NCBI GenBank assembly: GCA_020351745.1
Contig: CP070665.1
Location: forward strand, 910,345-962,742
DNA: 52,398 bases
Source of the DNA: Candidatus Heimdallarchaeota archaeon
Lineage (GTDB): Archaea; Asgardarchaeota; Heimdallarchaeia; Hodarchaeales; Hodarchaeaceae
Direction: 5' to 3'
Part shown: one piece after another, positions 19,918 to 48,922 of the stretch
Layout: every line of letters starts with the position of its first letter
Position numbering within the stretch: position 1 is the first letter of the stretch
Made by a program: the position numbers and the translations under genes
The notes under the pieces: model-generated
What the model was told of the DNA's origin: nothing
What the model saw: the letters and a program-made list of their open reading frames with translations, nothing else
Database searches by the model: none

Positions 19918-20076
19918 TGCCGAGGGTGCGATTTGAACGCACGACAACTGGATATCCATCACACAGATGAATCTGGGACTTCAGTCCAGCGCTGACGGGA
20001 ACCAATGCCATCATAAGATGGCTATCCTCCCGGGTTTCTCATTTGCTCATGAGAGCAAACTCTAAGCTACCTCGGC
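19918..20076 (-). tRNA. tRNA-Phe(GAA) with three introns (two in the D-arm region, one at 37/38)
   Basis: The reverse complement reads GCCGAGG TA GCTTAG[27 nt]CCCGGGA[34 nt]AGC G CTGGA CTGAAG[25 nt]A TCCAG TTGTC GTGCG TTCAAAT CGCAC CCTCGGC A. Arithmetic: 159-86 = 73 nt mature. The exact D-arm exon borders are ambiguous because short sequences repeat at the junctions. Confidence 0.8.
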
Positions 20077-20683: not shown

Positions 20684-20823
20684 TGCTCCGACCGGGATTT
20701 TCCGTACACAAACAACTTGTTTGTACATTTTGAACCCGGGTCTTTCCGCTTGGGATCAAGATCGAATTCAGCCAGATTCGGGGCGAAAGCCCGGAATGAT
20801 GGGCCGAGCTACACTATCGGAGC
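20684..20823 (-). tRNA. tRNA-Glu(TTC) with a 31-nt T-loop intron and a second ~34-nt insertion 3' of the anticodon
   Basis: The reverse complement reads GCTCCGA TA GTGTAGCTCGGCCCATCAT T CCGGG CTTTCGC CCCGA...[34 nt]...AGAC CCGGG TTCAAA[31 nt]T CCCGG TCGGAGC A. The D arm matches the archaeal tRNA-Glu consensus. The splice sites of the second insertion could not be placed unambiguously. Confidence 0.75.
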
Positions 20824-21033
20824 AAAACCTCACGAACTACCGCCTTTATTGGCAATACAACCCCCCTTGCTTCAAATTAAAAAGCTTTGTTAATAAGATG
20901 TCAAATAGCGAAACAAGAGCTTTAAAAGTGAATTAAGAATATTTATCCAGCTATTCGATAAATTAGAAATACTTAATTATTTAAAAAAACCTCTTTCTCT
21001 AATATAGGATCTAATGATAAGGTGTTCAATAGT

Positions 21034-21387
21034 ATGGTCTCTCCACGCAATCGAAAAAGGAGAAGAAGATCTTTGGAACGCCAAGAAATCCAGTTATTAG
21101 CACAAGACGCTGTAAAATTTATAATTGAGGAGAGTTTAAAAATTCGCTTAACAGATCCTCAAAGATCTCAAGAGCTGTTTCGCACAGCCCGAAAAATCGG
21201 AAAAAGAGGACGGTTTCATCTTCCACATAAGTATCGCTTCTTGTTTTGTCGGTCATGTTATTATCCTTTAAGTATTAAAACAGCAAAAATTCGTTTAAAT
21301 AGTAAAAAACAGCAAATTCACTATCTTTGTTTGAACTGTAAGAAAGAACAACGATTTGGTTATTTGTACAGTAGAAAAAAAGAATGA
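21034..21387 (+). CDS. rnp4: RNase P protein component 4 (Rpp21/Rpr2 family)
   Basis: Basic N-terminus, helical region, then a zinc ribbon FCRSCYYPL...LCLNCKKEQRF. The start is set at ATG 21034; the track uses GTG 21022. Confidence 0.8.
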   Translation: MVSPRNRKRRRRSLERQEIQLLAQDAVKFIIEESLKIRLTDPQRSQELFRTARKIGKRGRFHLPHKYRFLFCRSCYYPLSIKTAKIRLNSKKQQIHYLCLNCKKEQRFGYLYSRKKE

Positions 21388-21397
21388 AGGAATAATT

Positions 21398-21724
21398 ATG
21401 TTTGTAGCGATTTATACAACTTTTGACAGCTTGAAGGAAGCAAAGGCCTTTGGTCATCTCTTGATTGAAAAAAAACTGGCAGCGTGTGTAAATTTAATTC
21501 ATGATGTTCATTCAATTTACCGTTGGAAAGGGAAAATCGAAGAGGCAACAGAAATAATCCTATGGTGCAAAACCCAAGATTCCTTGATCGAAGAGATCCA
21601 AGCCATGATCCAAGAGTCTCATCCATATGATCTACCAGCTTTTGTGGTTTATCCGATTCACTCAGGAAGCGAGGCTTATCTAAAATGGATAGCTGAAGAA
21701 ACCCAACCTCTAGACATCAACTGA
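21398..21724 (+). CDS. cutA: divalent-cation tolerance protein CutA
   Basis: MFVAIYTTFDSLKEAKAFGHLLIEKKLAACVNLIHDVHSIYRWKGKIEEATEIILWCKT...HPYDLPAFVVYPI is the canonical CutA1 pattern. The start is set at ATG 21398. Confidence 0.85.
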   Translation: MFVAIYTTFDSLKEAKAFGHLLIEKKLAACVNLIHDVHSIYRWKGKIEEATEIILWCKTQDSLIEEIQAMIQESHPYDLPAFVVYPIHSGSEAYLKWIAEETQPLDIN

Positions 21725-22765
21725 AACCTTAAATCGATTATTAATCTTCTCCGTATGAATTACAACTCCTAATATTTCTTGAATCAACCCAATATTTGTT
21801 TTAGTATGATTTGATAAATAAGAAGTGTAAAAAACACTAGGATTGCATGCTGTTGCCATGATAGGCAAAACTTGGTCTGCTAAAAATGGATCGACAGTAC
21901 TCTGACTGTTTAATGAAACGATATAACGTTCGTAGGCCTTTAGACCAACCTTTTCAGCAGATAACTTACGTTCACCAACAAAATCCCCGCTTAATATGCT
22001 ATTTCCCATTCTTGAGTATATTAATACCCCAGATCCTGGATTATTTGCATTTACATATTCACTTTTGATTTTTGATTCGATATTCTGTTTTAATAAAACG
22101 GATGCGATTGTTTTTGCTTGTCTTTCTGCAACTCGTGCTTTTTGAAGGTGTTTTGAAGCAATTGACAGAGTATTAACCAATTCTGGTCTTTGGAATATAT
22201 CAAGATTCAATCCTTTTGGACAGGAAGGAGACCTCATAATAGCTGAAACCCTTGCTCCTCCCTTCGGATAAAAACCGTGACGATTGATATTTAGTGTAAG
22301 TTCAAAATTCATTTGACGAAAGATTTCCCAAGTTACATGATTTATGTAAGGAATACTAGGTGCCCATTTTCCAAAAGTAGCTCCCCCCTGAAACTCGACT
22401 TTTAGTGTGTGATTCTTAATCCCAAGGATAGCCAGCTGAAGAGACTGTAAAATTAATCCCAAACTACCTGCCGTGGAAACATGAATTTTCAAATGAGATC
22501 TCCATGAATTTGCTGGAGTGAAAGAAATGGTTTTTGATCTAAGATAATCTCCTTCTAATTCACCTCCACAAAAATTAGCTAGTGCACGAACCCCTACAAG
22601 ATGTTGTGTTTGGAGCCCAGGTTTCGGACGATTTTTTCGGATATTCACAATTTTAACAGGTTCTTGTGTTACGAGAGCAAGAGATGTTACTAATCGAAGA
22701 ATAGATCCTCCTCCTTCTCCTAAACTTCCATCATAGACTTGCAAATAGTTACCTCTGATAAACAA
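21710..22765 (-). CDS. rtcA: RNA 3'-terminal phosphate cyclase family protein (Phe at the position of the expected His nucleophile)
   Basis: The N-terminus is DGSLGEGGGSILRL...IRKNRPKPGLQTQHL. The C-terminus is VDPFLADQVLP...SNHTKTNIGLIQEILG. TTG start. In the D-x-H-L-A-D-Q motif the His position is Phe (codon 21884-21886). Confidence 0.85.
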   Translation of the reverse strand: MFIRGNYLQVYDGSLGEGGGSILRLVTSLALVTQEPVKIVNIRKNRPKPGLQTQHLVGVRALANFCGGELEGDYLRSKTISFTPANSWRSHLKIHVSTAGSLGLILQSLQLAILGIKNHTLKVEFQGGATFGKWAPSIPYINHVTWEIFRQMNFELTLNINRHGFYPKGGARVSAIMRSPSCPKGLNLDIFQRPELVNTLSIASKHLQKARVAERQAKTIASVLLKQNIESKIKSEYVNANNPGSGVLIYSRMGNSILSGDFVGERKLSAEKVGLKAYERYIVSLNSQSTVDPFLADQVLPIMATACNPSVFYTSYLSNHTKTNIGLIQEILGVVIHTEKINNRFKVSVDV

Positions 22766-22842
22766 TAATACATGATCTTAAAGAGAGTGGCCGAAGTTAC
22801 AATTAAAACATTATATGAGTTACCTTTTCACAGGAAAAGACG

Positions 22843-23004
22843 CTATCCAGCTCGCTCTTTTCGCTTGGGTCGCAGTCTTTTAGAGCGACATCGTCGACAT
22901 TTAGTTGCACCTGGAGGGTTTCGCGCATAACACTTTCTACAAATCATCATATCAAGTAATACCTTTCGAACAATGTCTCGTTTCTCAGGATCTGTGACTG
23001 GCAT
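22843..23004 (-). CDS. rpl40e: 50S ribosomal protein L40e
   Basis: Below the track's size cut-off. My translation is MPVTDPEKRDIVRKVLLDMMICRKCYARNPPGATKCRRCRSKRLRPKRKERAG*. It has the CxxC...CxxC zinc ribbon and the LRPK tail typical of L40e. Confidence 0.85.
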   Translation of the reverse strand: MPVTDPEKRDIVRKVLLDMMICRKCYARNPPGATKCRRCRSKRLRPKRKERAG

Positions 23005-23672
23005 TGTATTGGGTTCCTTTTCAGCGAGTAACTTTGTATTAAGTTCCTTTTCTGTGGATCACCTATCATCATATTATCAAAAAATAATTTCTGGAATTGG
23101 AGATGAAATGTGACTATCTTAAGGGATTTTACGTAAATTTAAATTCTTTCTTGTTAGATAGAAGCCGAAATTAGAGGAGAAACATAAATCTCTGGATTCT
23201 TTGTTCTATCAACTTTTTAGATAACCAAAAATAACTACAATTGCATGAGAATCAGTTCATGGAGAACTTTAGGGTAGTAATAACAAGAATTATAACAATA
23301 AAACTATCTCATGGAAGATATACTGCATTGAAGTACAAAAATCATTTCTTTTCTCTCCTACTAACGAAATCAGCTAAATTTATTTGGAAAACATACCTCA
23401 TGTTTTTTAATATTCTTGTGGTTAATTATTCATGCTCTATTAATTAATTATCAAGGTAGGTCAGTATATCTTTTAACCAAGATTTTTTGGAAATCCCCCC
23501 GCCCCCTCTATTTCGAGTGCAGAAAACGAGAAATAACGACAAAAAAGGGGAATAATTCCAAATCGCAACCTGGATTGTGTTTAATTATCACTGTACTATT
23601 TCCAGAAAACATTAATAAAGGAGAAAAAACCAAAGAAAACGTGAAGCAAAAATTCAGAAAAGGTGATTTCCA

Positions 23673-23960
23673 ATGCAATATTACATGAGTGTATCAGAGA
23701 TCCAAAATCGTGTAAAAACCTTGATTAACCATTTCACAGGAAGTTATAATGTCAAATCACCATTTTTTAATACAAGATTAGTGAAATCTCTCCAAAAAAT
23801 GGTGGATCCCAATCTTTTAAACAATGAAAAGGTAGCGGAAGAAATCATAACGACTTTTTTAAATGCGATTATTTTAGCTGGACAATTGGGTATTGATATC
23901 GAAACAAAGGTGAATGAATATCTTATACAGCTAGAGAGAGAAGCTATCTTTGCTATGTAA
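23673..23960 (+). CDS. hypothetical small helical protein
   Basis: 95-aa ORF with an ATG start and a predicted all-alpha character. No motif recognised. Coding status uncertain. Confidence 0.35.
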   Translation: MQYYMSVSEIQNRVKTLINHFTGSYNVKSPFFNTRLVKSLQKMVDPNLLNNEKVAEEIITTFLNAIILAGQLGIDIETKVNEYLIQLEREAIFAM

Positions 23961-23995
23961 GTTATAAAGATTACTTTTCTTAAAATTATTGATGT

Positions 23996-25114
23996 TTATG
24001 CAAAGAGAGAGATAATTGAATCTAGTGTAATGATACCCAACACTAGGCTACCTAAGACACTTAAAACTAAACACCCTAGTCCACCAAAGATAGGTAAAGG
24101 AAGACCAGGCAATGCGCGCTCCTTTTTTAATAATCTGAATGTATAAAACGCTCCTACAAAAAGTCCAACGAGTGCTGCAATGAGAGGAATTGGAGTAGCT
24201 AATCCATCACCTATCACAACAGCAGCGCTGATTAGCATGCTAAAAAATGCAAAATCACCTAAGCCAATATTTATTAAAGGAGTAGAATAAACAGGGAGAG
24301 CTGGTAACAAAGGCACTTTCTCATATTCCCCCTCATTATAGGAAGCCATGTTACTTTCGTTTTGTTCAGCAACTTCGCGGCCATGGTCAATAATTCCTTT
24401 TAATGGACCACGAAACACAGCATAAATGTCATACAATGATAAGCCTACTAAGATGAGAACTGTAGTAAGTAGGCCAAGATGTATAGCTAGCATTGAGCCA
24501 ATCATTGCTCCAAAAAATATCATCATCAGATTTCGGAGCCAAATCTTATCAAAACTCTGAATTCCAAATGAGATCGTGCCAAGTAAACCCAAGAGTATAG
24601 CAAATATGTACAATAGCATTTCAATCATGAAAATCTGTTGTGTTCCGATTGTTACGCTCCAATCGAAAGAATAATTAATCCAATCCTGAATGAGTGGAGG
24701 AAGAATAGTCCAGGACAGGTTTAAAACTTCAAATAGAACAATGGCTCCATAGAATAGCCCAAAAACAAACCAGCTAAATCCCATCATCGCTGCAAAGAAA
24801 TAAACTAAAAGTTGCATGAATCCTTTCTTTATTATAACCAGAACAATTAATCCCCCAATAAATGCCAATGTAACATAAAAAAGCATATTTAGTATTGCTC
24901 CCAAAGCGATTCCACCTGGATCCTCTGGATTTTCGGGAATTGGGGAAATATCTGGAATTTCTGCGGTTGGATCTTGCTCTTGTACCAACGTGTAATAATC
25001 GAGTGTAAATATGGATAAAATAATTGCAATAAGGAGTACAAAAACTATAGGCTGTATAAACGCCTGTAACTTTGCTTCGGGGGTTTCGTGGTTTTCGGTT
25101 ATTCTTTCACTCAT
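23996..25114 (-). CDS. presenilin/signal-peptide-peptidase-like intramembrane aspartyl protease (A22 family)
   Basis: Polytopic membrane protein with the two catalytic motifs LSLYDIYAVF (YD) and NIGLGDFAFFS (GxGD), plus a C-terminal PAL-like ALPGLP segment. Confidence 0.75.
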   Translation of the reverse strand: MSERITENHETPEAKLQAFIQPIVFVLLIAIILSIFTLDYYTLVQEQDPTAEIPDISPIPENPEDPGGIALGAILNMLFYVTLAFIGGLIVLVIIKKGFMQLLVYFFAAMMGFSWFVFGLFYGAIVLFEVLNLSWTILPPLIQDWINYSFDWSVTIGTQQIFMIEMLLYIFAILLGLLGTISFGIQSFDKIWLRNLMMIFFGAMIGSMLAIHLGLLTTVLILVGLSLYDIYAVFRGPLKGIIDHGREVAEQNESNMASYNEGEYEKVPLLPALPVYSTPLINIGLGDFAFFSMLISAAVVIGDGLATPIPLIAALVGLFVGAFYTFRLLKKERALPGLPLPIFGGLGCLVLSVLGSLVLGIITLDSIISLFA

Positions 25115-26522: not shown

Positions 26523-27329
26523 TTAATGGGAGATTTGGTCATTTTTATTCATTTTTTCCTGAAGATTAAGCTCTATCCATTTCAATACGCCCATCAATGT
26601 AGTTAATTCGCGTCCTGTAACATATCCTCGGGAAAGAACGTTCGAAAATGCTTGTAGTGCAATATAGTATTTTTCAGGGCGGTATTTCGTCGTTTTAATC
26701 AATTGTTCAAAGTAATTCAGCAATAATTGCCTTTCTTTATAAGAAGCAATACGATGTTTTGGTTTAACTTTAGAATTATCCTGATTATTTTCTTGAAACT
26801 TTTGAGAAAGAAAGTAGAGTATAATGGCAACAGCATGTGACAGATTCATAACAGGATAGGATGAGTGCGTGGGAATAGATACTAGTAGATCACATAATCC
26901 GATTTCTTTATTAGATAATCCATATTGTTCTCTCCCAAAAACGATCGCTAGCTTGCTGCTATCAAATTCCTCCCTCAATAATTGATTTGGGGGGATAGTC
27001 ACTCTATTTAAGTTGTAATCACCCCCAACTCGAGCTGTGGTACCGATCACAAGCTTAAAATCTTCACGTATCTGCTGAAGATTTGTAATTAGAAGAGCTT
27101 GATTTATTATAATCTCAGCACGACGGGCTACAATCTTAATCTCGGGATCTGATAAATCAAGACGAGGATTAGCTATGATAAGGTTTGAAAAACCAAAGTT
27201 CATCATCACACGAGCAATATTCCCTAGGTTTTGAGGTTTGCTAGGTTCCACCAAAATCACAGACAAAGAATCCCAGCAATTCCTTTTTTTTAACGTAGCA
27301 GGGTGAGATTTATTGTTCACTCTTATCAT
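26523..27329 (-). CDS. SpoU/TrmH-class RNA 2'-O-methyltransferase, TrmJ-like
   Basis: ILVEPSKPQNLGNIARVMMNFGFSNLIIANPR...AIVFGREQYGLSN...IPTHSSYPVMNLSHAVAIILY has the SPOUT knot motifs. The start is set at ATG 27329; the track uses TTG 27353. Confidence 0.75.
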   Translation of the reverse strand: MIRVNNKSHPATLKKRNCWDSLSVILVEPSKPQNLGNIARVMMNFGFSNLIIANPRLDLSDPEIKIVARRAEIIINQALLITNLQQIREDFKLVIGTTARVGGDYNLNRVTIPPNQLLREEFDSSKLAIVFGREQYGLSNKEIGLCDLLVSIPTHSSYPVMNLSHAVAIILYFLSQKFQENNQDNSKVKPKHRIASYKERQLLLNYFEQLIKTTKYRPEKYYIALQAFSNVLSRGYVTGRELTTLMGVLKWIELNLQEKMNKNDQISH

Positions 27330-27610
27330 CTCAATACTACAACGACTCTTCAATATCCAATCTTGAGTAGGATAAAGTCATACTCGCTATTTGAGGGGAT
27401 TTATATGAATACAAGGATTAATACTACTCCAAGAATTTGGAACAAGTAGATATGACTAAAATATATAATATCAGCTCATTTTAAGGTAGTGCATTCTCTT
27501 TTAAAGAACTTAAAGCTTCAACTACTAAAAGTCACACCTTAAAAAAGATAAAAATTGATAATCATCACGCAAATCTTGCCTCCTAGGCGGCATTACTACA
27601 CCTCTAGAAT

Positions 27611-27769
27611 GCGGGGGTAGCCAAGCCAGGTCAAAGGTGGCATTTATTGGGCTAGATGATAGCTTAGCATATCATAATAGCGCCGTCCAAAGGCGCTGGA
27701 CTTAAGATCGCTTTTCGATAAGCAATCCAGTCATATAGATGTACGTGGGTTCAAATCCCATCCCCCGCA
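27611..27769 (+). tRNA. tRNA-Leu(TAA), type II, with two introns (D loop ~56 nt; 37/38 ~18 nt)
   Basis: GCGGGGG TA GCCAAGCCAGGTC[56 nt]AAAGGCG CTGGA CTTAAG[atcgcttttcgataagca]A TCCAG TCATATAGATGTAC GTGGG TTCAAAT CCCAT CCCCCGC A. Arithmetic: 159-74 = 85 nt mature. The exon junction sequence is duplicated (GGTCAAAGG / GTCCAAAGG). Confidence 0.85.
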
Positions 27770-27779
27770 TATTTCATTA

Positions 27780-29108
27780 TCAATGGAAGGACTTATCGCC
27801 GTTTTTTCTCTCACCAATCAGGTAATTAGGACCAGCTTCTGTTACAAGTATTTTCAAAACCTGACCTAATGAAATCTTTTCACCCTCAACCAATATTGGT
27901 ATATATGACGTATTTCTACCAATAAATTGATTCGTGTGTTTCCCATAATCATAAATTAGTATTATTCCCTCCCACCCAATCCATCTTCTCAGCTCTCTCT
28001 GAGTGATGTCGCGAGTCAGTTCAGTTAATTCTCTGCTTCGATTAGCTTTTATTTTCGTTGGAATCTTGGGAGAAAGTTGTGAGGCTAAAGTTCCAGGACG
28101 ATCTGTGTATTTGGAAATATTTACAATAATAGGCCTTACTTCTTGTAGAAGTCGCTTTGTTGCCTCGTAATCTTTTTGAGACTCTCCAGGAAAACCAACC
28201 ATTATATCAGTCGCGAATACTAATTCATCAATTTCTTGTCGTAATTGTTTAACAAGGTCAATGAAATATTTACCAGTTTCTTTCCTTTTCATTTTTTGAA
28301 GAATAGAATCAGATCCAACCTGAATTGGCAGATGAAGAAAAGAAAAAACCTTGAAAGTGCGTAATTGTTGAACTAAAGGAGTTAAAAATCTTTTCAATGT
28401 TATAGGAGTCATCATCCCTAACCGTATGAAGAAGTCTCCTTTTAAACGTGCAATGGATTCAATGAGAGTCGGAATATACAGCTTGGGAGAGAAATCCCAG
28501 CCATAGGTGCCAATGTCTTGTGATGTGAGTCTTATTTCTTTACTTCCTCTTTCTATTGCAAGTTGAATTTCTGTTAAAATTGATTCTTGTGAGCGTGAGC
28601 GAACTTTGCCCTTAATATTTCTTACAATACAAAAAGCGCACGACCCCAAACATCCCCGAGAGATTTCTACTGTTGTAATAACGGGATTATATCGTAAACG
28701 ATCATCTGTGTATAACTGTGACCAAGTATGAGGAGCACTAGTCTTAATCTCTTGAACAGGATGGTTATTTAAGAGATCTATAATACAATTAGCTGCTTCT
28801 GGAAAAAGAACTCTTGCATTTGGTAAGTTTTTTGAAACCCAATCACGCATAACAACAGGTAGACAGCCTGTTACAACTATATCTTTAGTTTTTGATAAAG
28901 ATAATAATTTACTCTTCATTCTATGTTCTGTATTTTGCTTCACGACACATGTATTAACAATTATAACTTCAGTATCTTCTACAGAATCAGAGATTATATA
29001 TCCATGTCTTTCCAATATTCCCATCAAGCCCTCTGCAATTGCATGATTAGCACTACAGCCATAATTTAGGACGCTAACAAGTTTTTTACTCTTTTCTATT
29101 GTTTTCAT
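27780..29108 (-). CDS. radical-SAM methylthiotransferase, MiaB/MtaB (CDKAL1-like) family
   Basis: Has the N-terminal UPF0004 domain (NYGCSANH...NTCVV), the radical SAM cluster GCLGSCAFCIV, and a C-terminal TRAM-like segment. The start is set at ATG 29108 (MKTIEKSKKL). The track's GTG 29219 extension would overlap the RHH ORF. Confidence 0.85.
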   Translation of the reverse strand: MKTIEKSKKLVSVLNYGCSANHAIAEGLMGILERHGYIISDSVEDTEVIIVNTCVVKQNTEHRMKSKLLSLSKTKDIVVTGCLPVVMRDWVSKNLPNARVLFPEAANCIIDLLNNHPVQEIKTSAPHTWSQLYTDDRLRYNPVITTVEISRGCLGSCAFCIVRNIKGKVRSRSQESILTEIQLAIERGSKEIRLTSQDIGTYGWDFSPKLYIPTLIESIARLKGDFFIRLGMMTPITLKRFLTPLVQQLRTFKVFSFLHLPIQVGSDSILQKMKRKETGKYFIDLVKQLRQEIDELVFATDIMVGFPGESQKDYEATKRLLQEVRPIIVNISKYTDRPGTLASQLSPKIPTKIKANRSRELTELTRDITQRELRRWIGWEGIILIYDYGKHTNQFIGRNTSYIPILVEGEKISLGQVLKILVTEAGPNYLIGERKNGDKSFH

Positions 29109-29212
29109 TTCAGTATGATCCAAACTACCGAGCTGAGCAAAACCTTTTTTTAAGATCTGAGAGAGAATTACAATGGTGCAAATTTTTCTAGAAGGTGTGA
29201 AAAATTCGAACT

Positions 29213-29341
29213 GTGACACTTTATGTGGAAGAAGAACTTATAGATGCCATGGCTGAGCTTGTTAGAAATGGAAAATATCCAAATCGTTCCGAATTTGTAC
29301 GGTCAGCCATCCGTGATCTAATTGACAAGTATTCTTCCTGA
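29213..29341 (+). CDS. small ribbon-helix-helix (CopG/NikR-like) protein
   Basis: Not in the track. The frame is open from 29201. From GTG 29213 it reads (M)TLYVEEELIDAMAELVRNGKYPNRSEFVRSAIRDLIDKYSS*. The beta-strand, helix, and G-x-Y-x-(S/N)RSEF(V/I)R-x-A-I pattern is typical of RHH proteins. The start codon is uncertain. Confidence 0.5.
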   Translation: MTLYVEEELIDAMAELVRNGKYPNRSEFVRSAIRDLIDKYSS

Positions 29342-31870: not shown

Positions 31871-31974
31871 CGGGCGCAGAGGGATTTGAACCCCCGACCA
31901 ACAGGTATCTTCAGGATAAATAGTAAATTTAATCATTAAAAGCCTGTCGCTCTACCTGGCTGAGCTATGCGCCC
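31871..31974 (-). tRNA. tRNA-Lys(TTT) with a canonical 30-nt intron
   Basis: The reverse complement reads GGGCGCA TA GCTC AGCCAGGTA GAGC G ACAGG CTTTTA[30 nt]A CCTGT TGGTC GGGGG TTCAAAT CCCTC TGCGCCC G. Confidence 0.9.
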
Positions 31975-32091: not shown

Positions 32092-32289
32092 TACATACTA
32101 AACGAAGACTTGTTTCATATTATTGCTTAATAGGCGTCCAAGTCTGCCCCTTCTTTCTCAATTTTTTAAATTAATCCTCTCCTAAAGATGTTATAATCTA
32201 GTTCCTGCATAACCTTAAAATCCTAGAGCCAATGCAAAGAAAATTGTTGGATACTACTTAGTGAAAAGTAATAACCCCTAATCACACAC

Positions 32290-32509
32290 GCTGGGGTGGC
32301 TTAAACGATGATAGTCTTATTATCGTGGCAAAGCCTGGTATAATAATATGTCTATAGTCAAAATGCCGATAGCGCGGGACTCATAATCTGAGAATGATTC
32401 TCACAACTTTATAAGGGCAAGATTCGCGCTTTCAGACGGGACATCCCGAAGTCGGGGGTTCGAAACTGGGTAAGTTGCGATTTACCCAACGAAAAGCCCC
32501 CCCCCAGCA
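32290..32509 (+). tRNA. elongator-type tRNA-Met(CAT) with four introns (29, 29, 57 and 31 nt)
   Basis: GCTGGGG TG GCT[29]A AGCCTGGTA[29]TAGC G CGGGA CTCATA[57]A TCCCG AAGTC GGGGG TTCGAA[31]G CCCCC CCCCAGC A. Arithmetic: 220-146 = 74 nt. The spliced product has perfect acceptor, D (GCTA/TAGC), anticodon (CGGGA/TCCCG) and T (GGGGG/CCCCC) stems. Confidence 0.8.
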
Positions 32510-32608: not shown

Positions 32609-32748
32609 GCTCCGATAGTGTAGCTTGGCCCATCATTCAGGGCTCTCAATGAGATCTACCATATAGGGGATTCTCAGGAGTTCCCCTGTGACCCGGGTTC
32701 AAAAGACACAAACAAGGTGTTTGTGTACGGAAAATCCCGGTCGGAGCA
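32609..32748 (+). tRNA. tRNA-Glu(CTC) with two introns (37/38, 34 nt; T loop 59/60, 31 nt)
   Basis: GCTCCGA TA GTGTAGCTTGGCCCATCAT T CAGGG CTCTCA[34]C CCCTG TGAC CCGGG TTCAAA[31]T CCCGG TCGGAGC A. Arithmetic: 140-65 = 75 nt. Confidence 0.87.
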
Positions 32749-32799
32749 TTCCTCTTTCTTCTCTAGAATTTCCTTTCAAATGCTGATTCCCAATAAGAA

Positions 32800-34161
32800 C
32801 TAACCAAACATTCCCTCTAAACCTGGCGGAATCCCTCCTGGAGGAGCTCCGCGGCGTCCTCGCATCTTCCGCATCATTTTTAATTGTTTTACCGCTTGAT
32901 TAAATTGATTTAAAAGAAGTTTCACTTCTTGAGGGGAAGTACCTGACCCTTTCGCAATTCTCTGGATACGTTTACCTTTAATCACCCGAGCATTATCCAA
33001 TTCTTCTTCTGTCATTGAATTACATATTGCAATGAACCGTTTTACATTTTTTTGACCTTCTGCTTCTAATGTTGGTTGCTTTCCGGTCAGTGCACTGACT
33101 CCTGGAATTTTTGAAACTATTTTTCCGATAGATGATTGTTTACTCGCACTCTCCAATTGTATTTTGAAATGTCGTAAAGTTAGCTTCCCTTTTTTGAAAG
33201 CATCGCGAAGCTCTGCCGTATCTTCCTCGTCAAATGCTTCATTTACACTTTGTAATAGCCCCTCGATATCTCCCATACCTAATAGAGAGCCAACGAAGCG
33301 GGTCGGATTGAATTCCTCCATATCTTGGATTTTTTCCCCATCACCATAGAATCGGATTTTTGCTCCTGTTATTGCAACAGCAGAGACAGCTCCTCCACCT
33401 TTGGCTGAACCATCAAGTTTTGTTAAAATAATTGATCCAATAGGTGTCGCACGATTGAAAGCATCAGCCTGTGCTTGAGCTTGCTGTCCTATCGTCGCAT
33501 CAACCACTAAAATAATCTCAGTAGGTTTAGCAATTTTCGCAATTTCCTGCATTTCCTTTAATAAAGATTTCTCCTCCTTATGTCGCCCAGCAGTATCTAT
33601 TAAAACGAGATTGATATTTTTTTTCTCCTTAAAATGATTTAATCCCTTTTTAATAACTTTAGAAGATTTCTTTTCCTTTACATCCCCATAAACTTCTACA
33701 TTAATTGGAGCAAGATATTGTTGAAGTTGATCTAAAGCACCTGGTCTAAATGTGTCTCCCCCTACAACTCCTACTTTATACCCTCGTTTCTGGAAATAAT
33801 TTGCAATTTTACCAATGGATGTTGTTTTACCTGATCCTTGAATACCTATAAACATCACAATTGACAATTCGTTTGGGTCTAGCCGCATAGGAGCAAAACG
33901 TTTACCTAAGAGGTTAGTTAATTCATCATAAATTACCTTTAGAGTATAATCACGACGACTGACTCCAAGTGGAATTTGATCCTTTAACGCTCTTTCCCGC
34001 ACCTTTTCAGTCATACTTAGAGCCAAATCTAGATTAACATCACCAGAAAGAAGGGCATTTTCCAAATCCCTACAAAACTCATCAATTAATTCTTTATCTA
34101 CAATAGGGGCCCCACGGATCTTCATAATAGCATTTTGTAAAGAATTTCTCAATTCACGCAT
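32800..34161 (-). CDS. srp54: signal recognition particle protein SRP54
   Basis: Has N, G and M domains: [26 protein letters not shown], and a Met-rich C-terminus with a basic RGRRG tail. The start is set at ATG 34161; the track uses TTG 34170. Confidence 0.9.
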
Positions 34162-34424
34162 GTTTTCCAAACCGCATTAATTCATCTCTTTTTATTAAGG
34201 GCCAATATAATAGTTCCTCATTAATATTTGTATAGATCACCTGGTTTTATTTTATGTTATCATTAAATCTCTTCAAAAGGGGATTTAAACAGATTTTCAA
34301 GTTTCTATAAATCAGTCCAGATAAACCATGAATAATCACATAAATAGACATTCCCATAATGACTGGTTTTTGTAACTAGAAATAAATAAACCATATATTA
34401 GTTATAAATGCCCTTAAATTCAGT

Positions 34425-34955
34425 TTACATTTTATCTAGGAGGTAATTGAGAATCGTAATCGTTTGGGAGCTTAAATATAAATGAGAACCTAAAGATAAT
34501 GTAGGTAACTTTGTAAATAAATGCCTGTCTTCCTCTAGAAATCCAACTTGGTCCCCAATTAAGAAAGAATCATGATCTTTGAGTAGATGAATAGAATAAT
34601 CTCCTGTGATATCAAAAACAACGATTTTCCGATTTTTAATAAAATTATCAAGATTTTCACTGTAAAACCTTATTCCTAAGAATTTACGGCCTTGAAAGAT
34701 TTTTTTCAAAAGTCCTGCAATTGCCCGTTCATCTGGATTTATCCCCCGTACTTTATCGCCTTGAATTTCTAGAATTTTCCCATTAATCCGGAAATAAACT
34801 TCAAAAATAACATCTTTCCTAAAATCATTTGAAAGAAAGAAAGCAGCGGTAATACAACGACATAATACATCCAATCGGCCGTATCCAGTCAATGAATTGA
34901 GAGAAAGAGGTTTGGAAGTATCTATGCTGTTTGATATTATTAAAAAACGCCTCAT
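34425..34955 (-). CDS. trmY: tRNA (pseudouridine54-N1)-methyltransferase TrmY-like SPOUT protein
   Basis: MRRFLIISNS...GYGRLDVLCRCITAAFFLSNDFRKDVIF...NPDERAIAGLLKK...FLIGDQVGFLEED...LSLGSHLYLSSQTITILNYLLD is collinear with the Mj1640/TrmY family as I recall it. Confidence 0.7.
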   Translation of the reverse strand: MRRFLIISNSIDTSKPLSLNSLTGYGRLDVLCRCITAAFFLSNDFRKDVIFEVYFRINGKILEIQGDKVRGINPDERAIAGLLKKIFQGRKFLGIRFYSENLDNFIKNRKIVVFDITGDYSIHLLKDHDSFLIGDQVGFLEEDRHLFTKLPTLSLGSHLYLSSQTITILNYLLDKM

Positions 34956-35188
34956 ACTAATTTCTCAACTTCAGATTTTTACACTATTAAAGATCATTTT
35001 TGAGATGACTATTTGAAAAATTTGTTTATTTGCTTATTCTTTCATTGGAAAAAAGTAAAAAAATTTCGGTTAAATGGGAAAATAATACCATTGGAGGATT
35101 AAATCCATAATTTCGGCAATGAATTAGCCAAAAATTAAAAATTGCTTTTGAATTAATTCAAGTTGATTGTAGCTGAAGGGCTTTATAA

Positions 35189-36544
35189 ATGGAATCATCA
35201 ATCCTTGGTAAGGTTAGCCAATTAGTCAGGGATATACATTGCTGCAACTCGTGTCTAGGTCGGCAATTTGGTAATCTATTATCAGGATTGTCGAATGCTA
35301 AACGAGGTGAAGCGCTGAAAATATTACTCCTAATGGATTGGGAAAATAATTATCGTTTATTAACAATAGATCCCCCAGACTCGTCATCTCTTCTATCTAA
35401 AGACTTTAATATTGGATCATTGTCAATTCAACGATTTTTTCCTGAAACTCAACCTGTTGACTTGCCTTGTGACATTTGTCAAGATGTCCTTTCTTCCCAT
35501 AAGCTGAAAACTTTGACAACAGATGCCCTCAAAGCGTTAGATGAATATGAATTTTCCACTTTTCTTGTGGGTAGTCAATTCCCTCCTTCTATAATAGATA
35601 AGGAAGATACTATTCGTGGCACCTATAATCTCGAGTTTGGAGAATCAATTAAGTCTGAATTTAATCGAGAAATCGGAAAACGATTGCAAGATCAAATTAA
35701 TTATGCTTTAGTAGAATTTAAAGCCCCAGACGTTGTTTTAACTTTTGATTTGATCAATGACCAAATAAAAATTAAAAGTAATCCCCTATTTATCTTGGGT
35801 AGGTATAGAAAATTCAAACGTGGAATTCCTCAATCCAAATGGTTTTGTCGAAAGTGTCACGGTAAAGGATGTAAATACTGTAATTTTTCAGGTAAGATGT
35901 ATCAAGAATCAGTAGAAGAATTCATATCAAAACCTATCCTATCAGCGGCTAAAGGTAGAGCTAGTAAGTTTCATGGTTCAGGACGAGAAGATATTGATGC
36001 ACGGATGTTAGGAAGTGGACGTCCATTTGTTCTTGAGATTTCTGAACCTAAGAAGAGAAATCTCAATTTTAAATTGCTAGAGAGAAAAATTAATGAAAAT
36101 GCAGCTGGAAAAGTGGAGATTGAAATTGAGGGATTAACAAACAGAACTAAAGTTAGAGAACTAAAGACACGATCTAGTAGGAACGCAAAAGGGTACCGGG
36201 TGATTATTTCTCTGAAAACTCCATTAAAATTAGGGGAATCAGAAAGTTTATCCATAGAAGACGAATTCTCTGACTTACTTATCCAACAGCGGACTCCATT
36301 ACGAGTAGCTCACAGACGAGCTGATAAAGTTAGATCAAGAAGAATTAATTCATTTCGAATTGAGAAGATAGAACCACATCAATTGACAGTCTATATAGTT
36401 TGTGAAGGAGGACTATATGTAAAAGAACTAATCAGTGGAGATGAGGGGAGAACCCAACCAAACCTCTCTGAACGTCTTAACATTACTGCAGAAGTTACAC
36501 AACTCGATGTCATTGAAGTTTTTGATGATAAAAACTCCCTATAA
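35189..36544 (+). CDS. pus10: tRNA pseudouridine synthase Pus10
   Basis: Has the N-terminal zinc module CCNSCLGRQF...CDICQD, a THUMP-like region, an internal CRKCHGKGCKYC, and the catalytic region GSGREDIDARMLGSGRPFVLE. Transcribed divergently from trmY. Confidence 0.82.
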   Translation: MESSILGKVSQLVRDIHCCNSCLGRQFGNLLSGLSNAKRGEALKILLLMDWENNYRLLTIDPPDSSSLLSKDFNIGSLSIQRFFPETQPVDLPCDICQDVLSSHKLKTLTTDALKALDEYEFSTFLVGSQFPPSIIDKEDTIRGTYNLEFGESIKSEFNREIGKRLQDQINYALVEFKAPDVVLTFDLINDQIKIKSNPLFILGRYRKFKRGIPQSKWFCRKCHGKGCKYCNFSGKMYQESVEEFISKPILSAAKGRASKFHGSGREDIDARMLGSGRPFVLEISEPKKRNLNFKLLERKINENAAGKVEIEIEGLTNRTKVRELKTRSSRNAKGYRVIISLKTPLKLGESESLSIEDEFSDLLIQQRTPLRVAHRRADKVRSRRINSFRIEKIEPHQLTVYIVCEGGLYVKELISGDEGRTQPNLSERLNITAEVTQLDVIEVFDDKNSL

Positions 36545-39878: not shown

Positions 39879-40477
39879 TTATTTTTCACCATTCTTAGTA
39901 AAAAATCAACTGCTTCCTTTAATTCCTCTGATTGTGCCAGTTCGCTTTTCAGATTCGAGATCCGTTGATTATAAACTTCTTCTGGGATTTCCTCAATCTC
40001 TTTCCTTACAGAAAGCTCTTCAATACTATATTTTAAAGATTGAGCTCCTTTTGAAGCCCCCTGTTTCATTTCTCTTAATTTTTCAGTAGTTTGATTAATT
40101 TGTTGTGCTATAGCCTCTTTTTCTCCTAAATATTCATTTTTAAGAGATTCATAAACTGTAGCTTGAATCTCCCCTTTTTTTTCATTTAATTTCTTCAAAC
40201 GCTCTTGTAGCTTCGTTTGGTTGTCTATAAGATCCAAGAAAGGATGTTCTAAAGGTCCATGGTTCTCCCTGTCTTTAGTTAATTTCGCGATCCCTTGATC
40301 AAGTTTATTTATTTCTTCACTAACATCAATCTCCTCGATCTCAGCACGAATTTTGAGCTTTTCTGTTTTGATTTTCAGGTCTTTAAGCTCTTCTTCTATT
40401 TTAACTCTTTTAGCCACTTTTTTCAAAGAATTTGGAGTTATATCCATCTTTTCAGCTGTCATTTTTAGAGTCACCAC
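39875..40477 (-). CDS. coiled-coil protein, unknown function
   Basis: 200 aa, rich in Lys, Glu and Leu with heptad character throughout. ATG start. Translationally coupled to the SWIM gene. Lies downstream (same orientation) of repeat copy B. Confidence 0.55.
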   Translation of the reverse strand: MVTLKMTAEKMDITPNSLKKVAKRVKIEEELKDLKIKTEKLKIRAEIEEIDVSEEINKLDQGIAKLTKDRENHGPLEHPFLDLIDNQTKLQERLKKLNEKKGEIQATVYESLKNEYLGEKEAIAQQINQTTEKLREMKQGASKGAQSLKYSIEELSVRKEIEEIPEEVYNQRISNLKSELAQSEELKEAVDFLLRMVKNN

Positions 40478-40737
40478 AGGAGAAATATAAACTGAATGAA
40501 TTATTTTTTGATTTAATAAAATTGTTTCCTTGGGGGATTAAATTGAGTCTCCGAAAAACTATTATCATTTGATACGCAGTCCTTTTGATCTCTTTGTTGA
40601 TCCAAACAGAGAATTTCGCATTATTGTAGATCTAAGCGATGATAAGGGCTTATTTGTCTTTAATATTATGAAAGATAGTGTTATAAGATGTAAAATAGAG
40701 TGGAAAGGGTTCTTTCGTTTCAGATAAAAATAATGAA

Positions 40738-41142
40738 TTGAAAGAATAAAATTAATAAAAAATTGTGATCAAATGAGAGAATCAAAAGGCTCAAAATGGG
40801 GAGAAAGCAGGGGATGACAGAACACGAGCGAAGAAGTAGTGGGGAGAGAAAACCATATTAGAGAAGTAAGAGAAGAGGGAAAAGGTGTGAAAATGAATTG
40901 ATTGAAAGCTCAGTATGAAAGCTTTAACTAATAGTAATAGAGATCAGCCTGTCAATTCAGGGAATAAGACCAGTAGTGTACAATATCCTGATAAAGGATA
41001 TTCCCAAAAGCTTTTACAGCTGATGGGATAGATGCTGTCGGGTTACAGCTCACACAATGGAGAATAACGACGACAACGAGCTAGTTGATGGCCTCCTGTG
41101 AATGAAATTGCTATTTCTTTTATCAGTTTTAATAACCTGAGT
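40738..41142 (-). repeat. non-coding element, copy B of the diverged inverted pair (partner 5016-5421)
   Basis: Its reverse complement aligns with 5016-5421 across the full ~405 nt. The identical blocks include gctgtcgggttacag (41034-41048) and gcttttacagctgat (41010-41024). The plus strand is purine-rich. No ORF of 60 aa or more lies here. Confidence 0.8.
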
Positions 41143-41326
41143 TTTATCTCTAAGTACACTAATCTTATATGATGATCATTAAGGTATTTCAATCAAATTA
41201 AAATAAGATTTTTAATTTCTTTACTAATGTTTGCAATAAACATTTTCGTGAGAACATCTCCTAGTCCCAAAATAATCATATCAGCTGTAAATTAGCTAGA
41301 TCTTATTAAATCAGAAGGATTCTGTC

Positions 41327-44300
41327 TTGACATCGAAAGTCCAAATAGGTAAAATTGTAAGAATTTCTGGCCCTGTAGTGGAAATTAGTGGCATGAATCG
41401 TGCTCAACTTTATGAAATCGTTAGAGTTGGCGAAGAACAGTTAATTGGAGAGATTATCCGAATAAATCAATCTGGAGATAGACACATCTCAACTGTTCAA
41501 GTTTATGAAGAGACTACGGGTTTAAAACCTAGGGAGGAAGCAATAGCAACGGGGAAACCTCTAAGCGTTGAGCTCGGGCCAGGGTTAATAACCCGAATTT
41601 ATGATGGTATTCAGCGACCTCTACCAGCTCTCCAATTAGAAGAAGGTGATTTCATTACTCGTGGTCTCACATCTGCCCCGTTAGACCTGGATAAAAAATG
41701 GGATTTTAAACCATTAGTAACTAAAGGAGATACAATCAATGGGGGTTCGCATATTGGAGAAGTACGAGAATCTAGAATGGTAAATCACAAAATAATGATT
41801 CCTCCTGATATAGATATTGCAAAAGTTACTAATATCGCCACTCCTGATAAGTATTCAATATCAGAGACAATTGCCAAAATAGATGTAAAAGGGCTTTATA
41901 CTTCTGTACCAATCACAATGAAGCAAACATGGCCAGTTAGAAATGCACGTCCATTTAAAAGGAAACTGGAAGCAAATATTCCATTAATCACGGGCCAACG
42001 TATATATGACACTTTTTTTCCAATTGCCAAAGGAGGGGTGGCTGCCATACCAGGAGGATTTGGGACAGGGAAGTGTGTAACAGGTGATACGCCTGTTCTT
42101 TTAGAATCGGGTGATAGTATCCCGATCAAGCAAATTTATGATTATCATATGAAGAATAATGGCATTATCGAGGAAGATTCAGAAAATGAAACATTAATTC
42201 GTCTGAAAAATCCCTTATCAGTGATATCATTTAACGGAACAAAATACAGCTCACAGAAAGCCACTCACGTTTATCGTGGAAAAACAAATTCTATTGTAAA
42301 AATTAAAACAAGAAGTGGAAGGGTTGTTGAAATCACTCCTATCCATAAACTCTTCAAGTTCAATGGTGAATCCATTGAGGAAACAGCAGCAAAAGATCTA
42401 AAAATTGGAGACAATCTCATTGTTCCTCGAAAGATAAGCATCGAGGGTGAAGAAACAAAATTCCATTGTTATGATGTTGATCTCTCTCTACGAGTAATTG
42501 ATCAGCAAGCATTGCAACAAATGATAAGCTTAATCAAATACCTTAAGCAAACAATGACCTTAAAGCAAATAGCTGTAAAATTAAATGTTTCTTATGATGT
42601 TTTCATTGGATACTGGTTGCTTAAAAATAAACCTACCCTGAACTTCTTAAAGAACCTTGCTAAATTAGCAAAGGCTCCCTTAATACCTGTAAAACTTGTA
42701 AAATCAGAGCGTCAATCAGATCCGTTTCAGATACCCAATTCATTCACAAAAGAATTAGCTGAATGGTTAGGGCTTTTTGTAGCTGATGGTCATATTAAAG
42801 GTAAAAAAGGAGGAATTTATCTATATAATAATAACAACCAAATTCTTCAGCGATTCACTATTTTAACTGAAATTATCTTTGACATAGATGTTGAAATCGG
42901 TCAAGACGATTCAGAAAGGACTCCCTACGCGTGTATACGAAACGAGTCGCTTAAAAAATTCCTTTATTATCTCGGAATTCCAAAAGAGAAGAAAACATAC
43001 AATGTGAGGATACCTCAAGTAATCCGAAAGGGTTCAGATGACTTATTAGTACATTTCCTTGTAGGATATTTTGCAGGAGATGGATCTTTTTATCGTTATA
43101 CAGTCGAATTTAGTACTGTTAGTAAGAACCTCTTTAGTGATTTAGGATATTTATTAACACGTCTAGGTCTTATTTATAGAGCAAAGAAAAAAGGAAACTC
43201 CTTTATTTATCACCTTGACGGAAAAGAGGCTGAGATCCTTGCAGGAATATTTAAATTGACTGATGTTCATCAATACAACAAATTAAACCCACTCTATTCA
43301 TATGCTGCAAAGAATACACAGCATTTCATTGGTCGTGACGTTGTACCAATAGGTAATCAAGTTCTGGTTCGATTACACCATGAAGTTAAAGAAAATGCTG
43401 GTTATGACATACTTCGACAGAATAAAGGCATTCGATTGAGTAATTACATTAAGAAAGGGCAAATTCCTACGCTTTCAACCTTACAACAAATTTCAAATAC
43501 TTTAGAGGAACATCAAATTAATATCCCAACAAATAAAACTCTTGATGCTGTTATCCGCCTTTCACAAGAAGTTTTTTTTGACAAAATAATATCAATCGAA
43601 CTCATCGAAGAAACAACACCTGTTTATGATCTTACTGTTGATATAACACACAATTTTGTTGGTGGAATACTACCTTTCACACTACACAATACTGTGTCTC
43701 AGCATCAATTAGCCAAATGGTCTGATGCAACTGTGGTTGTTTACGTCGGTTGTGGGGAACGTGGTAACGAGATGGCCGAGGTTTTGAAGGATTTCCCAGA
43801 TCTGGAAGACCCACGATCTGGGGAAAAGCTAATGCAACGCACTGTTCTTATTGCAAACACCTCTAATATGCCTGTCGCGGCACGAGAAGCGTCAATATAC
43901 TTGGGTATTACTATTGCTGAATATTATCGCGATATGGGGTATGATGTTGCTTTAATGGCGGATTCAACAAGTCGTTGGGCTGAAGCTCTACGAGAAATTT
44001 CAGGTCGTTTGGAGGAAATGCCTGGAGAAGAAGGTTACCCAGCCTATCTTGCGTCCAGAATAGCAGAATTTTATGAACGGGCTGGGAGAGTTGAAACACT
44101 TTCTAGTCACAAGGCCAGTATATCCGCCATCGGAGCAGTCTCTCCTGGAGGAGGAGATTTCTCAGAACCAGTGACTCAAAATACCCTGAAAACAGTAAGA
44201 GTCTTCTGGGCATTAAGCTATCCATTAGCACGCTCCAGACATTTTCCTGCAATCTCTTGGTTGGAGAGTTATAGCCTTTATATTGATTCATTAACCGATT

Positions 44301-44734
44301 GGTATCATGAAAACATTGCACCAGACTTTAACATGCGCAGAGAAGAGGCAATGGCACTTCTCCAGAAAGAAAAGGAATTACAAGAGATTGTACAGTTGAT
44401 AGGTCCCGACGCATTACCTGAATCAGAGAAAATCATCCTTCAGGCTGCTAAAATGATTCGGGAAGATTTTCTCCAGCAAAGCGCTTATTCTGATGACTCT
44501 TATTGTGCTCTAGATAAGCAGTACAAAATGCTCTACATAATCATGCAATTTTATCATAAGATGCGTGAAAACCATAATGCAGGAGTTCCTCTTGAAAAAA
44601 TGACTTCTCTTCCCGTTTTATCTGATATAGCTAGTCTAAAATGGGCTTTTGACGAGGAATTCAATGGATTATATGAAAAATGCTTAGGTTTTGTTCAAAA
44701 TGAGATGAAACCAAGTGATTTTGGGATTGCGTGA
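41327..44734 (+). CDS. atpA: A-type (A1A0/V-type) ATP synthase catalytic subunit A, interrupted by an intein
   Basis: The exteins read ...[10 protein letters not shown]|[32 protein letters not shown]...[36 protein letters not shown]..., which is canonical subunit A (596 aa after splicing). TTG start. No other atp genes lie in the window. Confidence 0.9.
42074..43690 (+). mobile_element. intein (539 aa) with a LAGLIDADG homing-endonuclease domain, inserted in the P-loop of AtpA
   Basis: It begins [10 protein letters not shown] (block A), has TPIH (block B) and two LAGLIDADG motifs ([10 protein letters not shown] and [12 protein letters not shown]), and ends FTLHN followed by Thr. Removing it restores the GTGKT Walker A. 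Confidence 0.88.
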
Positions 44735-48649: not shown

Positions 48650-48922
48650 TCATCGCTTAGAGTGAAAATTTTTTTTGAATATCTGAATAATATCTTCGGA
48701 ATTCTCTGGTATTTTCCAGATTTTGCGAGGATTGGTTGATTCAACCTCCCAAATGAGTCCCATCCTTTTCAATTTCCTAGTTCTTGCTTCAATCCATTTA
48801 CAAGACTTACCAATAGTTAATGAGCGAAGTTTTGGATGATATAATAGGTCACGATTAGTACGTGGTTTGTGATCACCAAGAATAGCTAAAATGTTTATGT
48901 AAGTTCTTTCTGAGATTTCTAT
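48650..48922 (-). CDS. possible small winged-helix protein lacking a canonical start codon
   Basis: Not in the track. The minus-strand frame is open from 48949 to the stop at 48652..48650: ...EIEISERTYINILAILGDHKPRTNRDLLYHPKLRSLTIGKSCKWIEARTRKLKRMGLIWEVESTNPRKIWKIPENSEDIIQIFKKNFHSKR*. It has a wHTH-like helix-turn-helix-wing pattern. There is no ATG, GTG or TTG until codon ~69. The nominal start is placed at ATA 48922, which overlaps the truA stop. Confidence 0.35.
   Translation of the reverse strand: MEISERTYINILAILGDHKPRTNRDLLYHPKLRSLTIGKSCKWIEARTRKLKRMGLIWEVESTNPRKIWKIPENSEDIIQIFKKNFHSKR

Follow-up and report, generated by a model that had tools for sequence, protein, structure and literature searches.

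Is a tRNA gene that is interrupted four times still a working gene? This question is raised by a 220-nt locus at 32290-32509 (+) of a 52,398-nt stretch of archaeal DNA, hereafter called the window. An earlier note, prepared from the same DNA, had read the locus as a tRNA-Met gene split by four introns, and its letters match that description. Our analysis indicates that it is very probably a working tRNA(CAU) gene with four introns, spliced at bulge-helix-bulge (BHB)-type junctions located at tRNA positions 14/15, 22/23, 37/38 and 59/60. Its product is most likely an elongator tRNA-Met. The exon/intron architecture, conservation, covariation and motif geometry, all observed directly in the window and its orthologues, are presented before the processing steps and the competing explanations.

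Spliced product and orthologues

As calculated in the earlier note, removal of inserts of 29, 29, 57 and 31 nt leaves a 74-nt sequence, which ARAGORN identified as a tRNA-Met(cat) with full cloverleaf, for the earlier and the revised junctions alike. The revised order of exons and introns is listed here, with H denoting the central helix of the splice motif, h its outer helix and h' its intron helix.

Exon 1, 32290-32303 (+): tRNA positions 1-14, GCTGGGGTGGCTTA, comprising the acceptor 5' strand, U8, G9, the D-stem 5' strand and A14.
Intron 1, 32304-32332 (+): 29 nt, at 14/15 in the D loop, with a relaxed HBh' motif and no outer helix.
Exon 2, 32333-32341 (+): tRNA positions 15-22 including 17a, GCCTGGTAT, invariant in 14/14 orthologues.
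Intron 2, 32342-32370 (+): 29 nt, at 22/23, with a weak relaxed motif.
Exon 3, 32371-32385 (+): tRNA positions 23-37, AGCGCGGGACTCATA, comprising the D-stem 3' strand, G26, the anticodon-stem 5' strand and the CAU loop.
Intron 3, 32386-32442 (+): 57 nt, at the canonical 37/38 position, with an hBHBh' motif in which the outer helix h is the anticodon stem.
Exon 4, 32443-32464 (+): tRNA positions 38-59, ATCCCGAAGTCGGGGGTTCGAA, conserved.
Intron 4, 32465-32495 (+): 31 nt, at 59/60 in the T loop, with a canonical hBHBh' motif in which the outer helix h is the T stem.
Exon 5, 32496-32509 (+): tRNA positions 60-73, GCCCCCCCCCAGCA, comprising G60, the T-stem 3' strand, the acceptor 3' strand and A73.

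The anticodon loop of the spliced product, CUCAUAA, has 7 nt with a CAU anticodon, U33 and A37, and the discriminator base is A73. CCA is not encoded at the 3' end of the gene. G+C content amounts to 65% in the exons and 28-44% in the introns, compared to 36% for the window. Within the window, ARAGORN called two uninterrupted tRNAs and five tRNAs reached the Rfam gathering score, while the unspliced gene was missed by ARAGORN and by Rfam, even at E <= 10. A split or permuted tRNA gene is ruled out by the five exons, which are colinear on a single strand inside 220 nt. Group I or II introns and mobile-element insertions were also rejected, as the inserts measure merely 29-57 nt and gave no Rfam match at E <= 10.

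For comparison, orthologues were collected from related Asgard metagenome-assembled genomes (MAGs) labelled Hodarchaeota or Heimdallarchaeota and from metagenome contigs. Those located near the gene for SRP54 were L001, L003-L006, L008, L009, L012 and L014, and a metagenome scan added L075, L079, L082 and L098. Together with the window, this gave 14 distinct sequences, which were aligned with MAFFT (alignment A1) and are counted below as the 14 orthologues. They differ in their intron sets as follows.

Introns 1, 2, 3 and 4: window, L079, L001, L003, L004, L005, L006.
Introns 1, 3 and 4: L012.
Introns 1 and 3: L008, L009, L075.
Introns 2 and 3: L014, L082.
Intron 3 only: L098.

Every insert is precisely present or absent among these sequences, and all reduce to nearly the same 74-nt exon sequence. 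Among the seven four-intron genes, exon identity is 98.6% and intron identity 77-84%. Where exon stems do change, they do so in a compensatory manner: pair 28-42 turns from G-C to A-U in L014 and L082 (G28 to A, C42 to U), and T-stem pair 50-64 from G-C to A-U in L098. The one-intron orthologue L098 (1953-2082) scores 50.6 bits with the Rfam tRNA model, compared to a gathering score of 29. Because of the precise presence or absence of inserts, the shared exons, the compensatory stem changes and the L098 score, chance is ruled out and a pseudogene is very unlikely. The orthologues also mostly adjoin SRP54, followed by a tRNA-Glu gene.

The metagenome scan used the 17-mer GGACTCATAATCTGAGA, for which tRNA-Met orthologues accounted for 6 of 38 matches, the remainder being chance hits or an unrelated repeated element. 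This element, acaaagaacagcctccatatgg ... GGACTCATAATCTGAGAattagacc, is shared by about a dozen metagenome contigs (L078, L081, L084, L085, L087, L088, L095, L096, L101 and similar ones); it is not a tRNA and contains the 17-mer search pattern. A further contig, L109 (Ga0209536_100500801), carries on its reverse strand from base 152 the 5' part of a tRNA-Met gene, positions 1 to ~49, with introns 1 and 3. Neither a T arm nor a 3' acceptor strand was seen within ~1.3 kb after it. This partial copy, which is distinct in sequence from the window gene, may represent either a split tRNA gene or a pseudogene that has been truncated.

Splice junctions of the four introns

Junctions were evaluated with standard BHB geometry, under which the last six exon bases consist of four helix and two bulge positions, and the last six intron bases likewise. 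The resulting rule, two nucleotides after H on both strands, reproduces the junctions of introns 1, 2 and 4 that are set independently by intron-less orthologues and is therefore calibrated on the present data. At least three of four H pairs at all four junctions would be expected by chance with a probability of ~1e-3. Scored on A1, the combined structure pairs 93.3% of cells, in contrast to 41-49% with partners slid, and includes 10 pairs with changes on both sides, a number equalled in 0/500 shuffles. BHB-like structure had been named in the earlier note as a test of its junctions, and at least three of the four show a BHB or relaxed BHB motif. The positions of introns 3 (37/38) and 4 (T loop) stood, whereas introns 1 and 2, assigned earlier to the D stem and D loop, had to be shifted to 14/15 in the D loop and to 22/23. 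All three hairpins reported at that time exist: ACGATGATA/TATTATCGT and TGGGTAA/TTACCCA correspond to h' of introns 1 and 4, respectively, and TGAGAA/TTCTCA lies inside intron 3.

Intron 1 occurs in 11/14 orthologues and is precisely absent from L014, L082 and L098, where exon 1, invariant across all 14, is joined directly to exon 2. Its position at 14/15 follows because only an exon 1 at 32290-32303 and an exon 2 from 32333 unify the exons of all orthologues; the join 32303/32333 matches the uninterrupted GCTTAGCC of the three intron-less genes. With this junction, the D stem holds a U13·U22 mismatch, and the claim that all four stems are perfect had to be given up. The H helix joins 32299-32301 (GCU) to 32327-32329 (GGC) by 3 bp, with a 5' bulge UA|A. 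The h' helix (32305-32313 with 32318-32326) varies from 6 to 10 bp over the orthologues and contains five pairs with compensatory double changes, and the local fold has a z value of -4.67 versus shuffles. A D-stem junction at 12/13 was rejected: it gives a perfect stem with A13 in the window, but U or G at the near-universal A14 in L004, L008 and L009, and it also conflicts with the intron-less orthologues reading GCTTAGCC.

A short repeat accompanies this intron. Exon bases 7-11 (GTGGC, 32296-32300) recur at the intron end before the 3' bulge (32325-32329), which made MAFFT misplace the exon of intron-less orthologues. The repeat was rejected as the junction since D-stem sequences would then vary among orthologues; it may merely reflect that GGC needs to pair with GCU in the H helix.

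Intron 2 is found in 9/14 orthologues and precisely absent from L008, L009, L012, L075 and L098. An ATA repeat flanks it, so that four registers from 20/21 to 23/24 are equivalent in sequence, and we placed it at 22/23 because the BHB geometry picks that register. There, H is formed by 32336-32339 (UGGU) and 32365-32368 (GCCG) with two G-C and two G·U pairs, and both bulges read AU|A. The GCCG strand is invariant in 9/9 carriers, while neighbouring intron bases vary.

Intron 3 is present in 14/14 orthologues with a length of 49-62 nt. In the window, its H helix (32380-32383, CUCA, with 32437-32440, CGGG) has 3 bp and bulges UA|A and AC|A; over the orthologues it follows the pattern CUCA/NGRG with 3-4 bp, including changes of U·G to U-A and of A×C to A-U. 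The h' helix (32387-32393 with 32430-32436, UCUGAGA/UUUCAGA) has 7 bp in the four-intron group and is weaker elsewhere, and a conserved internal hairpin, TGAGAA/TTCTCA, joins 32389-32394 to 32398-32403. The helix h, the 3' bulge and H were recovered by the local minimum-free-energy fold and the RNAalifold consensus.

Inside this otherwise variable, AT-rich intron, the motif GGGC (32415-32418, usually as AAGGGC) is invariant in 14/14 orthologues. Possible partners in the D loop (GCCU), T stem (GCCC) and anticodon stem (CCC) were rejected, as none covaries and each requires a pseudoknot. Three other roles for intron 3 sequences were considered and discarded. Haloarchaeal tRNA-Trp provides an analogy for a box C/D guide RNA within an intron, but conservation is lacking for AAUGAUU, the sole C-box-like string, and the conserved CGCGCU is not followed by CUGA. 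A manual check for a nested intron revealed no H-helix match at the required positions, and a potential internal TATA box (TTTATAA, 32408-32414) is not conserved in the orthologues.

Intron 4 occurs in 8/14 orthologues and is precisely absent from six. Its H helix (32459-32462, UUCG, with 32490-32493, CGAA; bulges AA|A and AA|G) has 4/4 bp in 8/8 carriers and covaries between UUCG/CGAA, UUCA/UGAA and UUCA/UGAG. The 7-bp h' helix (32467-32473 with 32482-32488) contains compensatory pairs, and the local fold has a z value of -4.01 versus shuffles. Placed at 59/60, the intron leaves a T loop TTCGAAG; uninterrupted orthologues have TTCAAAG or TTCAAAC.

Proposed precursor processing and competing explanations

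The following account of transcription, processing enzymes and splicing order is a proposal based on established archaeal tRNA splicing. Transcription would yield a ~220-nt precursor. An upstream block, ...aaag.aataacccctaatca..., is kept in the window, L079 and L001 and is looser in L003-L006, and a possible archaeal promoter element, a candidate by its sequence, is located as follows.

A/T-rich box AAAAGTAATAA, 32264-32274 (+): 16-26 nt upstream of tRNA position 1.

In the precursor, the splicing endonuclease EndA would cut two nucleotides 3' of each strand of the 4-bp central helix, amounting to eight cuts, and an RtcB-type ligase would join the five exons. CCA, which the gene lacks, would then be added. 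Introns 3 and 4 would be canonical substrates on the anticodon stem and the T stem, and intron 1 would be a relaxed HBh' substrate. Intron 2, with only a central helix and loose flanks, would depend most on relaxed specificity or on folding context. A splicing endonuclease with broad specificity can be reasonably inferred. Asgard archaea are reported to encode an (alpha-beta)2 EndA with an L1 specificity loop (Kaneta et al. 2018, PMC5829648), and a review covers BHB, hBH and HBh' substrates and describes (alpha-beta)2 and epsilon2 enzymes as broadly specific (PMC6379350).

Several observations weigh against a four-intron elongator tRNA-Met gene processed in this way. Intron 2 lacks convincing flanking helices, its h' comprising just 2-3 bp, and shuffling its sequence does not lower the stability of the local fold (z = +0.18). 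For the entire precursor, the predicted minimum-free-energy fold (-79.1 kcal/mol) differs from the conformer with all BHB motifs (-63.8 kcal/mol when constrained) and includes an exon-intron helix whose formation would preclude the intron 3 motif. No EndA gene is present within the 52-kb window, and no RtcB was seen among the window genes. Finally, a CAU anticodon is common to Met, initiator Met and Ile2 tRNAs, which ARAGORN cannot separate.

The first two points suggest an alternative with three ordinary EndA introns, in which removal of insert 2 is context-dependent or so inefficient that it forms a maturation bottleneck. Insert 2 may, for example, be cut only after the other introns have gone or be helped by a helix between exon 3 and intron 3. 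Its lone 4-bp H with two G·U pairs, the lack of significant local structure and the alternative helices dominating the minimum-free-energy fold of the precursor fit this scenario, and the red alga Cyanidioschyzon merolae offers a documented case of several tRNA introns being removed in order (PMC3728597). However, the GCCG arm of H is invariant in 9/9 carriers, the junction geometry obeys the same two-nucleotide rule as at the other introns, and relaxed hBH and HBh' substrates are cut by (alpha-beta)2 EndA (PMC6379350). We regard such special treatment of insert 2 as unlikely.

The exon-intron helix deserves separate consideration.

Alternative exon-intron helix, 32371-32378 (AGCGCGGG, exon 3) with 32423-32430 (UUCGCGCU, intron 3) (+).

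A1 misaligns the CGCGC element in five sequences and hence understates this helix, and an alignment-free check was used instead. It revealed a perfect complement of 5-7 bp in 14/14 orthologues, with a compensatory change of G28 to A and of the intron C to U in L014 and L082. The helix belongs to the minimum-free-energy fold of six of ten orthologues and would form at the expense of the D stem and the anticodon stem. One speculative and rather doubtful model, built on these pairings, is that base pairing of the intron 3 CGCGCU with tRNA positions 23-28 acts as a folding switch that sets the splicing order in the four-intron precursor. These positions span the 3' strand of the D stem, G26 and the first part of the anticodon stem, and CGCGCU paired there would keep the D stem open; introns 1 and 2 could then form their weak D-arm motifs, and the BHB of intron 3 would stay unformed until the other introns are removed. 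An experimentally established splicing order, with the 37/38 intron last, is known from C. merolae. If true, the orthologues with one to four introns would represent a natural test system for the maturation of multi-intron precursor tRNAs.

A second alternative retains the same architecture and concerns the identity of the product, which would be a tRNA-Ile2 with C34 modified to agmatidine for reading AUA instead of an elongator tRNA-Met. Archaeal initiator tRNAs have A1-U72 and A54. The G1-C72 and T54 read from the present sequence speak against an initiator only. A start with GGGCC... is typical of tRNA-Ile, and the acceptor and D region GCUGGGGUGGCU looks more like that of archaeal elongator tRNA-Met (GCCGGGGUGGCU...), which is a lead and not a test. 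A four-intron Ile2-CAT is tabulated for Freyarchaeia, as discussed below. Overall, we consider Ile2 improbable and favor elongator tRNA-Met.

The last alternative, a decaying or non-functional pseudogene with accumulated insertions plus a separate intact gene supplying tRNA-Met, would agree with a locus uncalled by standard tRNA finders, with the poor splicing motif at intron 2 and with a tRNA gene scan covering the 52-kb window, but is hardly credible given exons that are near-invariant over at least seven species-level genomes while introns diverge, exon stem changes that are few and compensatory, intron helices that covary with BHB geometry kept, and conserved SRP54/tRNA-Glu synteny.

Host, neighboring genes and known systems

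SRP54 (32800-34170, -) shares 95% identity with its counterpart in a Promethearchaeota-labelled MAG and 77-90% with those in MAGs labelled Hodarchaeota, Hermodarchaeota or Heimdallarchaeota. The window further encodes archaeal Pus10, A/V-type ATPase subunit A, topoisomerase, eRF1, RtcA and the RNase P protein Rpp21. These SRP54 identities and the gene content identify the host as an Asgard archaeon and not a member of the Thermoproteales. Genes for RNA maturation are abundant in the window, at 21022-22765, 26523-29219, 34425-36544 and 48919-49749; the set comprises Rpp21, the RNA 3'-phosphate cyclase RtcA, a SpoU methylase, a MiaB-like tRNA methylthiotransferase, a PF04013 RNA methyltransferase, Pus10 and a TruA-type pseudouridine synthase. 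The open reading frame (ORF) for A/V-type ATP synthase subunit A (41327-44734, +) encodes 1135 amino acids, about twice the normal length. Its ATPase match falls into two stretches around an insert matching intein-containing RFC models, and by sequence it probably contains an intein. Rfam E-value scans returned nothing for the two largest ORF-poor gaps (22700-24050 and 40400-41400).

Further tRNA genes with inserts were observed in the window.

tRNA-Glu(CUC), 32609-32749 (+): 141 nt, separated from the tRNA-Met gene upstream by 99 nt and interrupted by a 37/38 intron and a T-loop intron (59/60); missed by ARAGORN and Rfam.
Second Glu-type tRNA with apparent anticodon UUC, 20684-20823 (-): 140 nt; missed by standard tools.
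tRNA-Phe(GAA)-like gene, 19918-20076 (-): 159 nt; the acceptor stem and T arm are perfect, and about three inserts are spread over the D region (two) and the anticodon loop (one); missed by standard tools.
tRNA-Leu(UAA)-like gene, 27611-27769 (+): 159 nt, interrupted in the D region and the anticodon loop by about two inserts; missed by standard tools.
Lys-type tRNA (loop CUUUUAA), 31871-31974 (-): 31-nt canonical intron, which is lacking in L075 (61-134, -).

The tRNA-Glu(CUC) gene is also variable among its orthologues. L006, L014 and L082 lack the T-loop intron, a D-loop intron occurs in L014 and L082, and in L012, L014 and L082 an insert after the anticodon arm replaces the 37/38 intron. 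Between this gene and the Glu(UUC)-type gene, the acceptor stem is identical, the T-loop intron nearly identical and the insert in the anticodon region different.

Within 52 kb, ARAGORN and Rfam thus overlook at least five interrupted tRNA genes, the essential-looking tRNA-Met gene among them. Because routine finders miss interrupted genes, Hodarchaeales/Heimdallarchaeia MAGs probably seem to lack tRNAs that they do encode. The intron sets {3}, {1,3}, {2,3}, {1,3,4} and {1,2,3,4} can be used for dating intron gain and loss and for defining the substrates of broad-specificity EndA.

With regard to known multi-intron tRNAs, reviews up to 2019 report genes with two or three introns (PMC4390854; PMC6379350). 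The earlier note had placed four introns at or beyond the known limit. This is overtaken by Supplementary Data 4 of Valentin-Alvarado et al. 2024 (PMC11291895), which contains columns for a fourth intron and lists four introns for Freyarchaeia Arg-TCT and Ile2-CAT by tRNAscan-SE and R2DT, and for Leu-GAG and Atabeyarchaeia Trp-CCA by R2DT. Four introns are the known maximum, already seen in Asgard archaea, and the present gene equals this upper limit without moving it. According to the same study, 92-95% of the tRNA genes in Atabeyarchaeia and Freyarchaeia contain introns, and multi-intron tRNAs are abundant in Asgard archaea. This very high tRNA intron load appears to reach the Hodarchaeota/Heimdallarchaeota-labelled branch; our literature search found no paper describing tRNA introns in Hodarchaeales.

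The Atabeyarchaeia and Freyarchaeia (PMC11291895) are alike in having an Asgard host and tRNA genes that are mostly interrupted, with many introns at non-canonical positions and as many as four in a gene. The present gene differs in stemming from another Asgard class (Hodarchaeales/Heimdallarchaeia-like) and in representing another isoacceptor. PMC11291895 gives coordinates only, without motif, covariation or orthologue analysis, and its text does not highlight the four-intron cases. Thermoproteales, in the account of Sugahara et al. 2008 relayed by PMC6379350 and PMC4390854, share short introns with BHB or relaxed motifs in the D loop or stem, anticodon loop and T loop, and broad-specificity (alpha-beta)2 EndA and rapid intron turnover are listed there as further likenesses. 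Unlike the present gene, the maximum reported in that account is three introns per gene, the phylum is another one, and our genome is AT-rich (36% GC).

Among eukaryotes, the nuclear tRNAs of C. merolae with multiple ectopic introns (Soma et al. 2013, PMC3728597) also combine D-region, 37/38 and T-loop introns within a single gene, with BHB-like junctions, and the splicing order was shown experimentally, the 37/38 intron being removed last. There, the maximum is three introns and some genes are permuted, in contrast to the present locus, where none is. Lastly, intron 3 resembles the canonical archaeal 37/38 BHB intron in its succession of anticodon stem, 3-nt bulge, H using positions 32-35, 3-nt bulge and intron helix, but stands apart by its length (57 nt) and its conserved TGAGA/TCTCA hairpin, GGGC motif and CGCGCU complementary to exon positions 23-28.

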